Source: Marispirochaeta sp.
GTDB lineage: Bacteria > Spirochaetota > Spirochaetia > JC444 > Marispirochaetaceae
Direction of reading: 5' to 3'
NCBI GenBank assembly: GCA_963676835.2
Contig: CAXXFF010000003.1
Span: 1-64,000 of the forward strand
DNA length: 64,000 nucleotides
Shown piece after piece: positions 1 through 30,000 of the stretch. Position 1 is the stretch's first letter. Each line of letters starts with the position of its first letter. The position numbers are program-made.

Positions 1-3000
1 CTTTTTAGTTCACAACAATAGCATATTCCTTAGAACCAATCTGGAAGTAAATATTCATGAGTTTAACTTTCTACCGTCTTTTGAAAAAAGAATACATGCT
101 TTTCCCAATGGAACATACGTTGGATATTTACCTGTAAAAGATGAAAACTTGAGAATCAATCTTGGAATGATTTAAACCACGAGTTTGAATTGTTTTTCTA
201 TGATTCAAATAATAACAGATACTTTACTGTTAGCAGAGCAAATGGTTGAGTTATCATATTTTCAATGCTTTCGACAATTCAAATATCGGAATTGTGATAT
301 CTGATGTGCCCGGTGCTCAGATAATTATAATAAACGATGATGGTGATTATTTATTCAAAGAAATATTTGAGATTGAGTTTTCACCTGATTATGTGAAATT
401 TATAGAAATAAATAACACACAAGGGACACTGTTGTTAGCAAAGTTAGGAGAAGAATCTAAATACATAGTCAATTTCTTAAATCACAAGGTTATAAATTAG
501 GTGAATAAGTACTTTTTACTGATATTTAGTCGCAAAGCAAAATACTGAACATAACAGCGAATAGCCGGTTCCGCCTGAAGGCGTCACCCAAATTACCAAG
601 AGCTGGTTGAAAGGGAGTGCTAACATAACCAGCAATTGGAGCAGTCAAACCTACTGTCACAGTTTGTGCAGTTATGTAACCAGGAGGATGCAATTTTAAG
701 GTTGTTCCGGGATGGAATCGTAGTAATGTGTACACCGGCCGAAAACGGACACCCATTCCGGAGGAAAGCGGACAGTGATTCCGGGCAAAAACGGACACCT
801 GTTCCGGCCGAAAACGGACAGTTTTTCCGGAGCGCCGGAATTGCTTTAACCTGAAATAAGAAATCCTCGATTAACACGAGCACTCTCGTCACAATAGCAA
901 AACTACTATTTGACGGAGTACAGAATGTCGAGAGCGAGGATTCATGTGAAACACATGCGTAAACTGCTTGCGCTCACGTACGAGAGCAAGCTGGGACTTC
1001 GGGATGTATCCCAACTGACCGGAGTATCTAAAACCACAGTCAGCGAATATCTGGTGCGATTCCGCCGCACCGGATCAGCTATGCAGCAAGCCAAAAGCTT
1101 ACCGATGAGCAGCTGCTTGGCCTGTTCGAAGAGAAAAGCAGGAAGAAAGTGAGCAGTATACACAACTAACGACACTGTTCCCCGAGTACGCCAACGGCTG
1201 AAACAGCGGGGGATGACGAAGCAGTTCCTATGGAAGGAATACCGTAGAAAGTATCCAAACGGATATAGATACAGTCAGTTCTGTCACCACTTTACGGTGT
1301 TTCTGGACTCCGGTGAGGTGACGATGCGTCAGCCCCACGAGCCTGGAGATATGGCATATCTCGACTATGCCGGAGAAACGTTCCCTTACTATCCTGATGG
1401 AGATGAGCAGCGGGCACAAATATTCGTTGCGGTACTCGGAGCAAGTCAGCTGGCCTATGTTGAAGCAAGTGAGAGCCAGAAACAAGAGGCCTTTGTCCGC
1501 TCCACAGAACGGGCTCTGAGGTACTTCGGCGGGGTTCCGCGAGCTCTCGTCCCGGATAACCTGAAGGCGGCCGTGCTCAGTGCGAGTAAATATGAGCCGG
1601 AGCTTAATCCGTTGTTCGATGATTTTGCCGATTACTACCGGACGACGATAATCCCCGCCAGGGCCTATAAACCGAAAGACAAATCCCTGGCGGAGAATGC
1701 CGTCAAGTTAACCTATCAGCGGATATTCGCCCCGCTGTACGGCAAGAGGTTCCATTCGTTGGCTGAGCTCAACCAGGCCATCGCAGAACTTCTTGAAGAA
1801 CACAATACCCGGAAACTGACAAAGCTGCAAATCTCACGGCGTCAGTTGTTTGAAGAGATCGAACGGTCTGCGCTGAAGACGCCTGCCGGGCGAACCGTAT
1901 CCAATGAAATACTTCGAAACTCACAAGGTTGCACCGGACTATCACTTTATCCTGTCAAAAGATAAGCACTACTACTCTGTTCCCTGGCAGCTGAAGGGAG
2001 AACAGGTCAAAGTGATCTTTGATGAGCGAATTATAGCGGTATATCACAAGAATGTACGCGTAGCCCAGCACCGCCGGAGCAGAAAGAAAGGACAATACTC
2101 CACACAGTCCGCACACATGCCCAGGCACCATCAGTTTGTTGAATCATGGTCGGCGGAGAAGTTTACCACCTGGGCTCAGTCGATTGGAGAAGAGACGTTC
2201 CTGGTGATTTCACATCTATTAAACAGCAAGCCACATGAGCAGCAGGCGTACAAATCCTGCCTTGGTGTGCTGAACCTGGCAAAGGATGCCGGATCACACC
2301 GGCTGAACTGGGCCTGCCGACGTGCGTTGAACTACTCGAGAATCAGTTATCGGGATGTTCGTGCATATCTGGATGAAATCATGCGACAAGAAAAGGATGA
2401 ACAGCAGAACAAAACAGGTGTTTCTCTTCGCCGATCACAAGAACCTGCGGGATTCTGCAATCTACAAATGAGGTAACCGATGAATAATAATCAGGCGACA
2501 ATCAACAAGATGACCGAGATGCGTCTCCACGGAATGGTACAGGCCTTCCGTACACTGCAGGAGACCGGACGCCATATGGATCTTACAACCGATGAGGTTA
2601 TCAGCTACCTTGTCGACTCAGAATGGGATGAGAAACACAATCGCCGACTGGCGCGCCTTGCCAATGCGGCCCGTTTCCGCTATAAGGCAGCGATTGAAGA
2701 TATCGACTATACCTTCGACCGGAATCTGGACAAAAACCAGATCTTAAGACTTGCAGCCTGCTCCTGGATATCCCGGGGGCAGGACCTGCTCATCACGGGT
2801 CCGACCGGAGGAGGAAAAAGTTTTCTTGGATCGGCTTTCGGACATCAGGCATGTCAGTATGGGTATACCGTCGCTTACTTTTCCACAACGCGTTTATTCA
2901 ATGAAATAGCGGCGGCAAGGGATGATGGAACCTACCTGAAGCACTTGTCACGCATAATGAAAAACAAGCTGGTCATTATCGATGACTTCGGTCTGGAACC

Positions 3001-27000: not shown

Positions 27001-30000
27001 TCCGCAAGATAAAGATTTATTAATTGCTGGTATTTTATACCAGATTCTTCAGACATTTCTTTAAAGTAATCAATCGTATCTTCATCAAGGCGTATTGTAA
27101 TTTGTTTTTTCAGTTTATTAATATAAGGATTCTTTTTTGCATTAGAAAAGTCATAATGATCTCTCATATTCCTACCCTCCATATTGCTTAGTTTCATCTT
27201 TATCAGCTTTTCTGGCTGATATTATTCGTATTATTTCATCATCTGATCTGTAACAGTGACACACAATCAGAACCTTTAAACTTTGGGAAAGACCCATTAT
27301 TAAAAACCGATCTTCTTCGGACGAATGATCAGGATCATGGATTATTAATGCAGAAGGATCAAAAAAGACCGTTTTTGCCTCTTCAAAAGTTACTTTATGC
27401 TTTTTTGTATTAGATTGGTTCTTTTCTTCATCCCATTCAAATTGAATGTGTGTCATACATATATTATAACTACATTGTAGTGAATGGTCAATTTATTTGT
27501 TTTTATACTCAAGCCAGGGATGGCGCCGCAACTATATTCTATGAAGGACATTTCCAATAACGTCCCGCGAATAGCCGAAGTTACCAAGACATCTGTACAC
27601 GCTGTCCCTTGCCTTGTGTAAACAATGTACCTGGGCTGTACCCTGTGTCTACATAACATAACCACTTATCCACTTTTCAGTATAACTCTGTAATTCCAAG
27701 TAACACTGCACAATAAATCCAGAAACGTTTTATTTATCATCCCATGAAGCAGTATACCACTTCTCACGGTATCAGTTATACGTATGCAGTATAACTCTAT
27801 ACAGGAGGTTTCGCTATCAAATTTTCAACCTACCTTTCGATGAAAACAGGCTTGTCTACAAGAAAACAACCATACTTCATCTCTCATGCAAGGGAATTCT
27901 ATCAGTTTTGCCTGGAAGGAAAGCTTGATATCATGGCTTACACAACAGTTGAGGCCTTTGTATCCGGTTTATCAAAGGACATGCCGGATTGGCTCATATT
28001 ACAACATAGAGAGTCCGTTTATGCTTTTCAGCGTTACTGGAAACTATATGGTCATTCAAAAAACAAAAATAGCAGGGATAATATAAAATCATGGGAGGAT
28101 GCTGAATCAGCTATGCGTAATTCACTTCGCCTACATCACCGTTCAAGAGAAACTGAAAAATCTTACCTGAGATGGATTCAGCAGTTTAAGGATCATATAA
28201 AAATTAAGAATCCTCAGGATGTAACAGATAAGCATTTTGTATTGTTTATCACCTTTCTTGCTGTAAACCGTCATATATCTTCTTCTACACAAAATCAATC
28301 CTTTAATGCTCTCTTATTTTTCTACCGGTCAGTTTTAAACCGAACGCCTGAAGGAATCCGCGACTCAGTAAGATCTTGTATACCCCCCAAACTGCCGGAG
28401 GTTATGAGCAGAAATGAGATCTCATACTTACTTGCTAAGCTTAAACCTCCATATCGTTTAATGTGTGCCTTGATCTATGGCGGAGGCTTGAGAATAAACG
28501 AATGCCTGAATCTTCGTATAAAAGATATAGACTACACTAATCAATGTCTGTACATACGAAGTGGCAAAGGAAACAAAGACCGTAGAACCTTGCTTTCTTC
28601 TGTAATATTAGAGGATATAAAACTGCATATCAGCGGAAATGTTAAACCTCTTTATCAGAAAGACCGTATCGAGGGTAATCCTGGAGTACCCCTTCCTGAG
28701 GCTCTATCCAGAAAATTCCCCAATGCTGCCAATGAATGGGGTTGGTATTGGGTATTTCCTTCAAAAAGAATTTCTTTTGATCCCGTCAGTGCGGTAACAG
28801 CCAGGTTTCATATTTACCCCACCTCTTTACAGCGGGAGTTTCATACTGTAAAGAAGCAGATCGGGATATTGCGCCATGTTAGTGTGCATACGTTACGGCA
28901 TAGCTTTGCAACTCATATGATCGAAGATGGATATGACGTCAGAACGGTGCAGGAACTTTTAGGTCATTCATCAGTCAACACCACCATGATCTACACGCAT
29001 ATTGCAGAAAAAAACAAGCTTGGCGCACGCAGCCCCCTCGGTACTGTGTGGAACTCTAATCCAATACAGCAGGCTATGAGGGAAAATCGGGAAGATTAAG
29101 CTCTTCTTTGAAGAGTCCTTCAATGTGTACAATTTCTTCTGATTTCTGTTTCCGCTGAAAAAACTGTCGGTCCATGGGAACATACTTATCTATAAGTTTA
29201 TAAGATCTGCTTTTCTTATCGAATTCCCAGATCTCCATGATTACCTCATCTCCGGCCATGTGTTTAACATGGTATATTGTCAGTTTTCTTCCGCTGTAGC
29301 GAGGTGCATACAACTGCCCTGTTTCCATTTCCATAATTCTTATATTATACTCACCTTCGATGTCGAGAGTAACATTTTTTTTGTTTATCACTCTTTTCTT
29401 TTTTTCATGCAGCGAAGAGAGATTACTTTATGTTAAGGTAAACAATATTAATGCTGAGCATATACCTCAATTACCTGCAGGATTTTCACTGTCTTCAGAC
29501 GGTAATGAGCCACCAGTCCTGACAGTAAATCTTCAGACATTAATAGGACCCAGAAACAACCTGCCTTTTCTTTTTTATTGTGAGCCCCTGATTCCGCGCA
29601 TAAACAATGTATACAGCCCGAATAACATCACTTTCAAAAATATCAGCGACCAGACTACAGAGCTTATTCCACTTTCTTTATGGAAAGACCCCGGGAAGGC
29701 AGCGTTTATTGATGGTATAGGTATAGATGATCCAGCCTATCCTGTCTGGAAATCAGAGAATTTAATTCCTGAATGGGCAGCCGATACGGATCTCGAAACA
29801 AAAATGATTCTACTGAAATGGCTCGGTAAATTCAAAACCGCGGAAACACCTCAAGTCAATGTCACCTGGATTGCCGCTGCAGGCGATATGATGCTACAGA
29901 GAGGGGTTCAGGATATGCTGCTTTCTTCATACTCCGGTCCCTCCTCGGTATTTAACGATCTGTTGCCCAGGTTATCTTCATTCGATCTCTTAATGGCAAA

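Follow-up and report, generated by a model that had tools for sequence, protein, structure and literature searches.

We propose that the long attC sites of a spirochaete integron carry promoters that probably express the cassettes downstream of them. The sites, in a chromosomal integron of Marispirochaeta sp., are ~101-nt sites of the same family with an additional unpaired apical loop of 72–79 nt, and the most conserved positions of that loop spell a sigma70 −10 box oriented towards the following cassette. The loop is an insert, as short and long sites have the same arms.

The chromosomal integron and its cassettes

We analyzed the first 64,000 nt of contig C3 (hereafter, the window), for which the survey's finding was a sedentary integron with an IntI-headed, low-GC array. 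The locus was confirmed as a true, sedentary chromosomal integron comprising IntI, an attI site and 17 cassettes; beyond intI lie ordinary genes, indicating a chromosomal setting and no transposon or plasmid. The array runs on the minus strand, with GC of 0.30–0.38 per kb outside IS copies compared with 0.47 for the contig. Its cassettes are circular units: the R'' of a cassette's own core was perfectly complementary to the cassette start in 13 of 17 cases, with 47 of 51 variable letters matching, a value reached in none of 100000 permutations, whereas complementarity to the present neighbour was found in only 1 of 17. We infer from this anatomy that IntI moves the cassettes through folded bottom-strand attC.

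The integrase gene (27840–29099, plus strand; 419 aa from its ATG) scored 355.7 bits against TIGR02249 in a profile search (cut-off 265). Its start is probably the in-frame ATC at 27816, which would give 427 aa; an AGGAGG lies upstream at 27803–27808, and G002 has the same Shine–Dalgarno sequence and ATC without the ATG. The protein contains the IntI-specific insertion when compared with the C2 integrase described below, its best fold match was 2a3v, and its predicted structure has an extra N-terminal helical region (an extension of ~90 aa), about which the model, built from a 3-sequence alignment with a mean pLDDT of 65, says little. IntI was found in five of five same-genus genomes and scored over the cut-off in 99 of 301 genomes of the class, where most frames were ~400–480 aa, and a metagenome search with it returned 42 loci with 32–44% identity over long matches. 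By their intI flanks, the G000/G002 integrase group differs from the G001/G003/G005 group.

The attI site (27651–27700, minus strand) adjoins intI and has a GTTRRRY core at 27651–27657. Its crossover, G|TTATGT, was placed between 27657 and 27656 because cassette 1 exactly duplicates the start of cassette 5 up to that base. Heads similar to this region occur in G002, in G004 and on contig C4, whose array has its own attI-like head. The palindrome GTTATAC-N7-GTATAAC (27775–27795), a candidate operator just upstream of the intI ribosome site, recurs once more in the orphan C4 head, and a TG-extended TATACT (27751–27756, minus strand), kept in G002, is a candidate −10 box of the cassette promoter Pc. 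Although lexA and recA are present, LexA control of this platform was not supported: in six genomes the region upstream of recA contains neither platform palindrome, and the lexA gene of G000 follows immediately on another gene.

The attC sites that follow lie on the minus strand, and their −10 boxes are given in brackets. Cassette 1 (26644–27656, minus strand), with BrnT/BrnA, its own TTGACC-17-TATAAT promoter and a duplicate at 22889–23901, overlaps a 182-nt attC of the side-hairpin subtype (26638–26819; TATAAT at 26714–26719). It is followed by the sites of cassette 2, with a PLDc_2 gene (171 nt, 25673–25843; TAGAAT at 25737–25742), and cassette 3, with an SH3_3 protein (185 nt, 24389–24573; TATAAT at 24465–24470). 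Cassette 4 (23902–24394, minus strand) has no ORF and is indeed present in four copies in the genome, as had been claimed. Next come sites of 175 nt (23896–24070; TATAAT at 23960–23965), 182 nt (22883–23064; TATAAT at 22959–22964) and 171 nt (21842–22012; TAGAAT at 21906–21911), then those of cassette 7, with a metallophosphoesterase and SLOG (185 nt, 20302–20486; TATAAT at 20378–20383), and cassette 8, with VapBC (171 nt, 19386–19556; TAGAAT at 19449–19454). In cassette 9 an IS21 copy (16399–18995, plus strand) splits the Fic gene, and an IS3 copy (14528–15754) with a 5-bp target duplication splits the attC (14386–15789). The array continues with the sites of a second ORF-less cassette (185 nt, 13882–14066; TATAAT at 13958–13963), a 170-nt site (12893–13062; TAAAAT at 12956–12961), the site of a 364-aa unknown protein whose duplicate cassette lies at 7810–9107 (171 nt, 11595–11765; TAGAAT at 11659–11664), those of a SoFic-like gene (181 nt, 10267–10447; TATAAT at 10338–10343) and a Fic + HTH gene (171 nt, 9102–9272; TAAAAT at 9165–9170), and a further 171-nt site (7804–7974; TAGAAT at 7868–7873). 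A second IS3 copy (approximately 6505–7790, minus strand) lies inside cassette 16, and the last intact sites are one of 179 nt (4505–4683; TATAAT at 4576–4581) and that of cassette 17, with an MNT/HEPN pair (184 nt, 3506–3689; TATAAT at 3582–3587).

At the contig end another IS21 copy (727–3322, plus strand) cuts an attC in its −10 region. The left part that remains (623–726, plus strand) sits in a ~780-bp piece inverted between opposed IS21 copies at the starts of C3 and C1, and an exact 20-nt overlap supports the proposed continuity of the array from C3 to C1. Three Fic genes lie in the window rather than four, an IS21 insertion having divided one of them into two ORFs. IS3, IS21 and IS66, previously said to interrupt the arrays, are all present but divided by array, IS66 in that of C2 and IS3 and IS21 in that of C3. 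An Rfam search over positions 1–30000 gave no match at E 0.1, so neither the loops nor the ORF-less cassettes matched a known RNA.

Length and fold of the attC sites

IntegronFinder allows attC sites of up to 200 bp. In a scan for the end motifs with up to three mismatches, the minus strand of the C3 array yielded 17 ends of each kind, left and right, which form 16 pairs; three further pairs were found on C1 and six on C4 (five long, one short). Core to core, the 24 long sites measure 170–185 nt and the single short site 101 nt. The long sites are thus outside the known attC range of 57–141 bp (PMC5371416) and extend it by ~40 nt, although supplements of papers may list longer ones; the survey had rightly called them unusually long.

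At C3 the sites have the canonical AAC/GTT R box, an unpaired spacer and an L box with an extrahelical base. One site folded against 200 shuffles gave z = −4.0, and an alignment of 38 sites supported 35 pairs, with 98% of cells paired and compensatory change at 12 pairs. The bottom strand was more stable than the top in 68 of 76 long sites and in all 11 short ones. The same arms occur in short (100–111 nt) and long (168–185 nt) sites, and one array holds both side by side. At least 32 complete sites were read from 125 loci; in 20 further integron loci 66 of 69 sites were 62–136 nt long. An extra conserved module in the long sites, as first described, does exist, but it is not a second stem: the loop is unpaired in the 38-site alignment and promoter-like instead. 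The side hairpin reported with it is limited to one subtype, and in place of two attC subtypes we distinguish roughly four types of arm and three or more types of loop, which occur in mixed combinations.

A promoter-like signal in the attC loop

We aligned 76 distinct loops from six genomes of one genus, with a mean identity of 47%, blind to any motif. T−12 is kept in all 76, A−11 in 75, A−9 and T−7 in 71 each and G−6 in 68, while position −8 is A or C in 38 of 38; the commonest hexamers are TATACT (29), TATAAT (17), TAGAAT (11) and TAAAAT (8). A 5/6 match to the −10 consensus fell within a fixed window in 67 loops, compared with 5.6 in 500 shuffles (maximum 13) and one on the other strand, and pairing does not explain the box. 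Host promoters show TTG-N17-TANAAT spacing and, when picked by their −35 alone, are enriched in T, A and T at the same three −10 places; the loops carry the T−12, A−11 and T−7 of a host sigma70 promoter on the sense strand. Under a host −10-only model the loop column was the best site in 63 of 76 loops, and the top strand outscored the bottom in 68.

The box also follows site length. Among 190 distinct sites from 20 genomes (14 of 52 non-family candidates were left out by eye as off-array or wrong-strand), a sense −10 box was found in 0 of 86 sites of up to 125 nt, 4 of 13 of 126–140 nt, 6 of 9 of 141–160 nt and 73 of 82 longer than 160 nt; antisense boxes in the same bins numbered 1, 1, 1 and 13. 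Unrelated architectures show the box as well, among them the atypical long sites described below and an attC family of 134–135 nt that carries TTGTTK-N17.

We suggest, on the basis of these patterns, that the recombining part of each long attC is the ~100-nt stem common in the class, and that its loop, in double-stranded DNA, probably acts as a sigma70-type promoter with a strong −10 and a weak −35. A transcript would start near the loop end, cross the right arm as a 55–70-nt leader and continue into the cassette behind; PMC2945992 offers a precedent for promoter function across an attC. A long-attC cassette would then drive whichever cassette stands behind it, so that expression would be set by the neighbour and not only by distance from Pc, and cassettes far from the main promoter might still be switched on.

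Several observations temper this proposal. At N17 the −35 is GTGATT in 20 and TTGTTC in 15 of 73 loops and is mostly absent in this genome's main family, and about one third of loops have a TG extension; with a strong −10 and a weak −35, the promoter would probably be weak, extended −10 or activator-dependent. A host two-box model gave no support, with the loop column the best site in only 16 of 76 loops and median scores of 5.1 on both strands compared with 6.4 for host upstream regions. A sigma70 consensus scan of 19000–28000 listed no loop site and gave the toxin-antitoxin cassettes promoters of their own (10–11/12). The median −10-only score, 6.2, falls inside the shuffle range (median 5.6, 95% 7.0), so the signal lies in position and strand rather than in strength. 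Long, AT-rich leaders are common among the cassettes and seem to contain promoters themselves, leaving less need for one in the loop; the length of a site showed no link with that of the leader in the cassette behind it (medians 89 and 83 nt, from crude start calls). The box is missing from the long sites of G039 (0 of 3) and G040 (0 of 1), and the 76 loops, being related copies within a single genus, do not count as 76 separate events.

A −10 kept while the −35 is poor, a loop length held at 72–79 nt, further conserved letters near −27 and palindromes upstream could also mean that RNA polymerase, or some other protein, is bound at the loop in order to control recombination and not gene expression. 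Binding or short transcription would keep the site duplex or change local supercoiling, tuning cassette excision, and loop length has been tied to folding and recombination (PMC5371416). We regard this as unlikely: the predicted recombinogenic fold is about equally probable whether a site is long or short (median L-box pairing 0.99 for either class), full TTGACA boxes are present in several atypical sites, and a role in expression would predict just the strict sense orientation to the following gene that is seen. Somewhat less probable still is that the hexamer is an inherited remnant of one ancestral AT-rich insert, spread by copying and gene conversion and without present function. All 76 loops come from one genus, the arms are shared and the −35 is weak, as this would have it, yet the loops, diverged as they are, keep precisely the −10-critical positions, and the link between length and box recurs in unrelated site families. 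Mimicry of attI failed as a general explanation of the loops, GTTATAC occurring in one subtype only while T−12 and A−11 are kept in all. That the long IntI reads the module as a structural element through its N-terminal extension, making the two attC classes exclusive, is improbable, for although the protein has that extra helical region and a palindrome beside intI in G001, G003 and G005 recurs in one loop subtype, long IntI is class-wide and mostly accompanied by sites of 62–136 nt (see also PMC3607928), a single array can hold short as well as long sites, the loop has no conserved structure and the platform palindrome is absent from the loops of G000.

A second cassette system and known integrons

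The second cassette system reported on contig C2 was borne out, in altered form. Its integrase (282 aa) has the catalytic motifs, lacks the IntI insertion, scores 177 on TIGR02249, below the cut-off, and matches NF040815 (XerA-like) best in NCBIfam, also below cut-off. Intact attC-like sites number seven and lie only at 561.4–570.1 kb, with two decayed ones down to ~560.1 kb, and not over 546–570 kb as proposed; six of the seven are not ordinary attC, their spacer being 1/5 or 0/4 and their 7–12-bp stem perfect. In both IntI insertion and attC geometry the locus is not a canonical integron. Atypical long sites carry a promoter-like box in 8 of 8 cases and atypical short sites in 0 of 13; seven of the eight have TTGACA, TTGTCA or TTGAAT 16–19 nt upstream, although the 19-nt spacers of three are off the host optimum. 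The C2 system has the same short/long dichotomy in other sequences. The arrays are mostly pure, as non-interchangeable attC classes would require, but one canonical-type site sits in the C2 array and one atypical site in the canonical array region of G003. The C2 protein resembles XerA-like recombinases but, unlike them, heads an array of hairpin-bounded cassettes, and our literature search found no paper naming a short-integrase hairpin-cassette system.

The C3 integron shares with Vibrio cholerae-type sedentary integrons (VCR 120–129 bp; PMC5371416) an IntI divergent from the array, an attI, and bottom-strand hairpins that have an R box, spacer, L box and extrahelical base and whose length depends on the terminal loop. 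Both also have toxin-antitoxin and defence-like cassettes and a bottom strand on the leading-strand template. The C3 integron differs in its 170–185-nt sites, in having two discrete size classes that share their arms, and in a fixed sense −10 in the loop; in the available text of PMC11014356 a VCR served only as a neutral spacer behind Plac. A precedent, in DAT722 (Michael and Labbate 2010, PMC2945992), is likewise a sigma70-type promoter at an attC, with the next-cassette transcript up ~40-fold, but at one junction, whereas here the element is family-wide, wholly inside the loop and moves together with the cassette upstream of it. Treponema sigma70 promoters are recognised in E. coli (PMC6557892). 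Gene-less promoter cassettes in Treponema (PMC6557892) and Vibrionaceae (PMC11014356) are also described as mobile promoters expressing downstream cassettes, and one start site there lies inside an attC (cassette F2) and was judged possibly spurious; the element here is instead in the attC of gene-bearing and ORF-less cassettes alike. Integrons are not barely known in Spirochaetota but on record there (PMC3607928, PMC4889954, PMC9668308). The Treponema integrons of the first have an IntI of ~400–410 aa and mixed attC sizes (63–132 bp), but their intI points to the array, here divergent, their sites are shorter, and the portion available mentions no promoter in attC.

Implications for cassette expression

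A literature search found no family of promoter-bearing attC in print; new here are matched short/long site pairs, in two recombinase systems. In the standard model, distal cassettes of large integrons are silent unless they have their own promoter, and attC is neutral or dampening. More speculatively, the loops may be exchangeable, regulated promoter modules, their types swapped via shared arms, some with the integrase-promoter operator, and reached independently in two unrelated recombinase systems of one cell; shuffling would then replace the Pc distance gradient by promoter–gene combinations across the whole array that are regulated jointly with the integrase. A second cassette system, which canonical models may miss, is suggested by the short-integrase array. 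Because they occur naturally and share their arms, the 101-nt and 171-nt sites form a clean test pair both for the promoter role and for the effect of the loop on recombination. If attC does carry a promoter, a large array of defence-like and toxin-antitoxin cassettes would be an expressed library, with cassette order setting the promoter–gene pairs.

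An integron integrase and its cassettes

The gene at 27840–29099 encodes a true integron integrase (IntI), presumably active in recombination. In a profile search it scored 355.7 bits against TIGR02249 (cut-off 265); the protein contains the IntI-specific insertion, and its top structural match was the IntI synapse 2a3v, in agreement with the survey's finding that an integron integrase heads the array. The cassettes run on the minus strand, and attI lies at 27651–27700 with the crossover at G|TTATGT, cassette 1 being an exact repeat of the start of cassette 5 up to that point. 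The first seven bases of the cassette were fully complementary to its own R'' box in 13 of 17 cassettes, and R'' and own start matched at 47 of 51 variable letters (permutation mean 30.9, none as high in 100000), while R'' matched the present neighbour in only one of the 17. Complementarity to the cassette's own start is what marks units moving in circular form, and IntI would be the enzyme that moves them.

An ATC codon is probably the start of intI; it follows AGGAGG by 7 nt and lies eight codons upstream of the ATG (27803–27818). The orthologue in the same-genus genome G002 has the same Shine–Dalgarno sequence and ATC, without an ATG at that place. Such a weak start codon could hold the integrase level low.

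Contigs C3 and C1 share an exact overlap of 20 bases. At this join a piece of about 780 bp lies inverted between two opposed IS21 copies. Insertion elements have also hit two attC sites, IS21 in a −10 region (623–726) and IS3 in a left arm with a 5-bp duplication (14386–15789). The array on C4 has an attI-like head without intI; this orphan platform consists of a palindrome and an attI-like sequence (L004 5388–5540, C4 335387–335535). By GC skew, the bottom strands of the small C4 array fall on the template for the lagging strand, the opposite of the C3 and C2 arrays. One C4 cassette gene has a PF25302 domain (NADase translocation, F5/8 type C; L004 9950–10858), and cassettes on C1 carry a SpoIIE-domain gene and metallophosphoesterase genes.

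Long attC sites and their apical loop

In the C3 array, a scan with two end motifs gave 17 left ends and 17 right ones, making 16 paired sites; C1 has three paired sites and C4 six, and a profile search of the whole genome found no additional full site outside these arrays. Measured from core to core, 24 sites are 170–185 nt long and one, on C4, is 101 nt. The survey had called these sites unusually long, and they are, set against the 57–141 bp stated in the available portion of PMC5371416; they also differ from the 63–132 bp given, in excerpts of PMC3607928, for Treponema integrons, in which intI is reversed.

The site family matched in all five same-genus genomes, and among the matches listed the named records are mostly Marispirochaeta, presumably the genus of this genome too. 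The fetched regions held at least 98 family sites from nine genomes, at least 12 of 100–111 nt, at least 79 of 168–185 nt and at least seven others. Short and long sites stand in the same arrays and share their arms; the difference is an inserted apical loop of 72–79 nt. A consensus of 38 of 84 distinct sites gave a stem of 35 pairs, with 98% of cells paired and compensatory changes in 12 pairs, compared with 28–44% pairing in a slid control (related sequences can beat a shuffle control without structure). The same consensus had zero pairs within the loop, which removes the second stem once proposed as an extra module; the side hairpin proposed with it is present, but only in the 179–185-nt subtype. 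A 174-nt site of the Marispirochaeta family (L261 16472–16645) stands in the array of G067, a genome from another family, so cassettes that carry long sites pass between families.

An ORF-less cassette body of about 330 nt occurs in four copies (23902–24394 and 13888–14391 in the window, 337708–338037 and 339154–339483 on C4), which are 90–94% identical and had no match in Rfam; the attC sites at their ends belong to three different subtypes. Arm types and loop types are also combined in mixed fashion across sites, and together these patterns suggest that sites have been swapped on cassettes. The same-genus genomes G001, G003 and G005 have recurring ORF-less cassettes of another size, about 425 nt, which often head the array, and genome G130 has tandem ones of about 400 nt.

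A promoter-like box in the loop

We aligned 76 distinct loops from six genomes without knowledge of any motif. Mean identity was 47%, and the most conserved columns were T−12 (76/76), A−11 (75/76), A−9 (71/76), T−7 (71/76) and G−6 (68/76), with a G near −27 in 72 of 76 and A or C at −8 in 38 of 38. In a fixed window, 67 of the 76 loops matched TATAAT at five of six letters, against 5.6 (maximum 13) in 500 shuffles and one loop on the opposite strand. In this genome the box position reads TATAAT, TAGAAT or TAAAAT in all 24 long sites. Host promoters take the form TTG-N17-TANAAT, and in 389 host upstream hexamers chosen by −35 alone, T, A and T were enriched at the same positions as in the loop box. 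With a −10-only model built from 165 of these hexamers, the loop column was the best site in 63 of 76 loops, and the top strand outscored the bottom one in 68.

We hold with moderate confidence, from these sequence patterns, that the attC loop is a promoter expressing downstream cassettes. Transcription would start near the loop end, yielding a 55–70-nt leader through the right arm. Because attC is part of the upstream cassette, its promoter would act on the cassette that follows in the array; in a double-stranded circle it would drive the cassette's own gene.

Other results weigh against such a promoter. The main family has a poor −35 (at 17 nt, GTGATT in 20 and TTGTTC in 15 of 73), only 16 of 76 loops had the best site of a two-box host model at the loop column, with top and bottom strands scoring alike, and a sigma70 consensus scan of 19000–28000 found 36 sites (shuffle mean 41), zero in any loop, with clear promoters in toxin–antitoxin cassettes. 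The −10-only loop score also fell within the shuffle range, several cassette leaders appear to carry promoters of their own, and in 11 of the 23 distinct long sites of this genome the box is overlapped by a −10-like hexamer in antisense. At most, then, the loop would be a weak promoter, of the extended −10 type or dependent on an activator. That the loop instead controls recombination seems unlikely to us, and we give still less credence to the hexamer being a remnant.

The box follows site length. When 190 distinct sites were pooled across 20 genomes, after 14 candidates had been removed by eye, a sense box occurred in 0 of 86 sites of up to 125 nt, 4 of 13 of 126–140 nt, 6 of 9 of 141–160 nt and 73 of 82 above 160 nt; antisense boxes in these classes numbered 1, 1, 1 and 13. 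Long sites come mostly from one genus, so these counts are not independent; independent support is the recurrence of the box in about four unrelated site architectures. Long sites in G039 (0/3) and G040 (0/1) lack it. Across the class, IntI exceeded the cut-off in 99 of 301 genomes, most frames being about 400–480 aa, and an ab initio scan of 20 further integron loci gave 69 sites, spread over 10 of the loci and each on the expected strand: 66 measured 62–136 nt, without a sense box, and two of the three of 155–174 nt had one. Recognition of the loop by the long IntI is improbable.

The palindrome AACAAT-N7/8-ATTGTT stands on both sides of intI in G001, G003 and G005 and also lies across the −35 in one of the loop subtypes (L028 4189–4208; L039 1974–1993; L026, region of 1330), which offers a lead on regulation. 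Five genomes held 14 exact N8 matches, of which 11 were at mapped integron loci, two on a G001 contig and one elsewhere. The motif, which may serve as an operator or as a core site for a recombinase, was absent upstream of recA, and no matching palindrome link between the intI platform and the loops was found in G000, the genome studied here. In two long attC sites (L023 2367–2534; L095), one of them in a KSB1 bacterium record, the loop contains TATACGTAT twice; this motif also precedes intI in G000 and G002.

The array promoters listed in the available part of PMC8876359 are cassette-borne, intron or IS promoters, none of them inside attC; excerpts of PMC11014356 describe one start site within attC, possibly spurious, and those of PMC2945992 one functional promoter bridging an attC (other integron papers, likewise in part: PMC9668308, PMC4889954, PMC6557892). 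Our search, mainly of open-access main texts, found neither a family-wide promoter in an attC loop nor cassette arrays with a short integrase.

The atypical array on C2

The C2 integrase gene (570374) encodes 282 aa, lacks the IntI insertion and scores higher against the XerA-like NF040815 than against TIGR02249, below both cut-offs. All four same-genus genomes searched have it, the G002 copy with a stop. Ordinary attC sites over 546000–570400 had been reported here; instead, the spacer is 1/5 or 0/4 and the stem perfect in six of the seven intact sites, and no intact site was found below about 560 kb. Given the short integrase without the insertion and the odd site geometry, this second array is the atypical one. 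A run of small, co-oriented, low-GC genes at 546–560 kb (L001 6000–20000) is probably its decayed distal part; one of these genes encodes an ABC-F family ATPase, far under the cut-offs of named resistance families. The array also holds one canonical attC of 100 nt (568241–568340), related to the C3 family; the two attC classes are mostly, not fully, segregated between arrays.

Long atypical sites (145–172 nt, four genomes) had the sense −10 box in 8 of 8 cases, compared with 0 of 13 short ones, and seven of the eight have TTGACA, TTGTCA or TTGAAT 16–19 nt upstream of it. Inner arms of the main family are reused in three of these long sites. In several (L002 11985–12135, L034, L049) the loop is itself a hairpin, with the −10 at its tip, the −35 at its base and spacers of 18–19 nt.

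The C3 integron is real and in part unusual. The size of its attC sites alone is a modest extension of the known range; the interest lies in the promoter-like loop and in the natural pairs of short and long sites in two recombinase systems.
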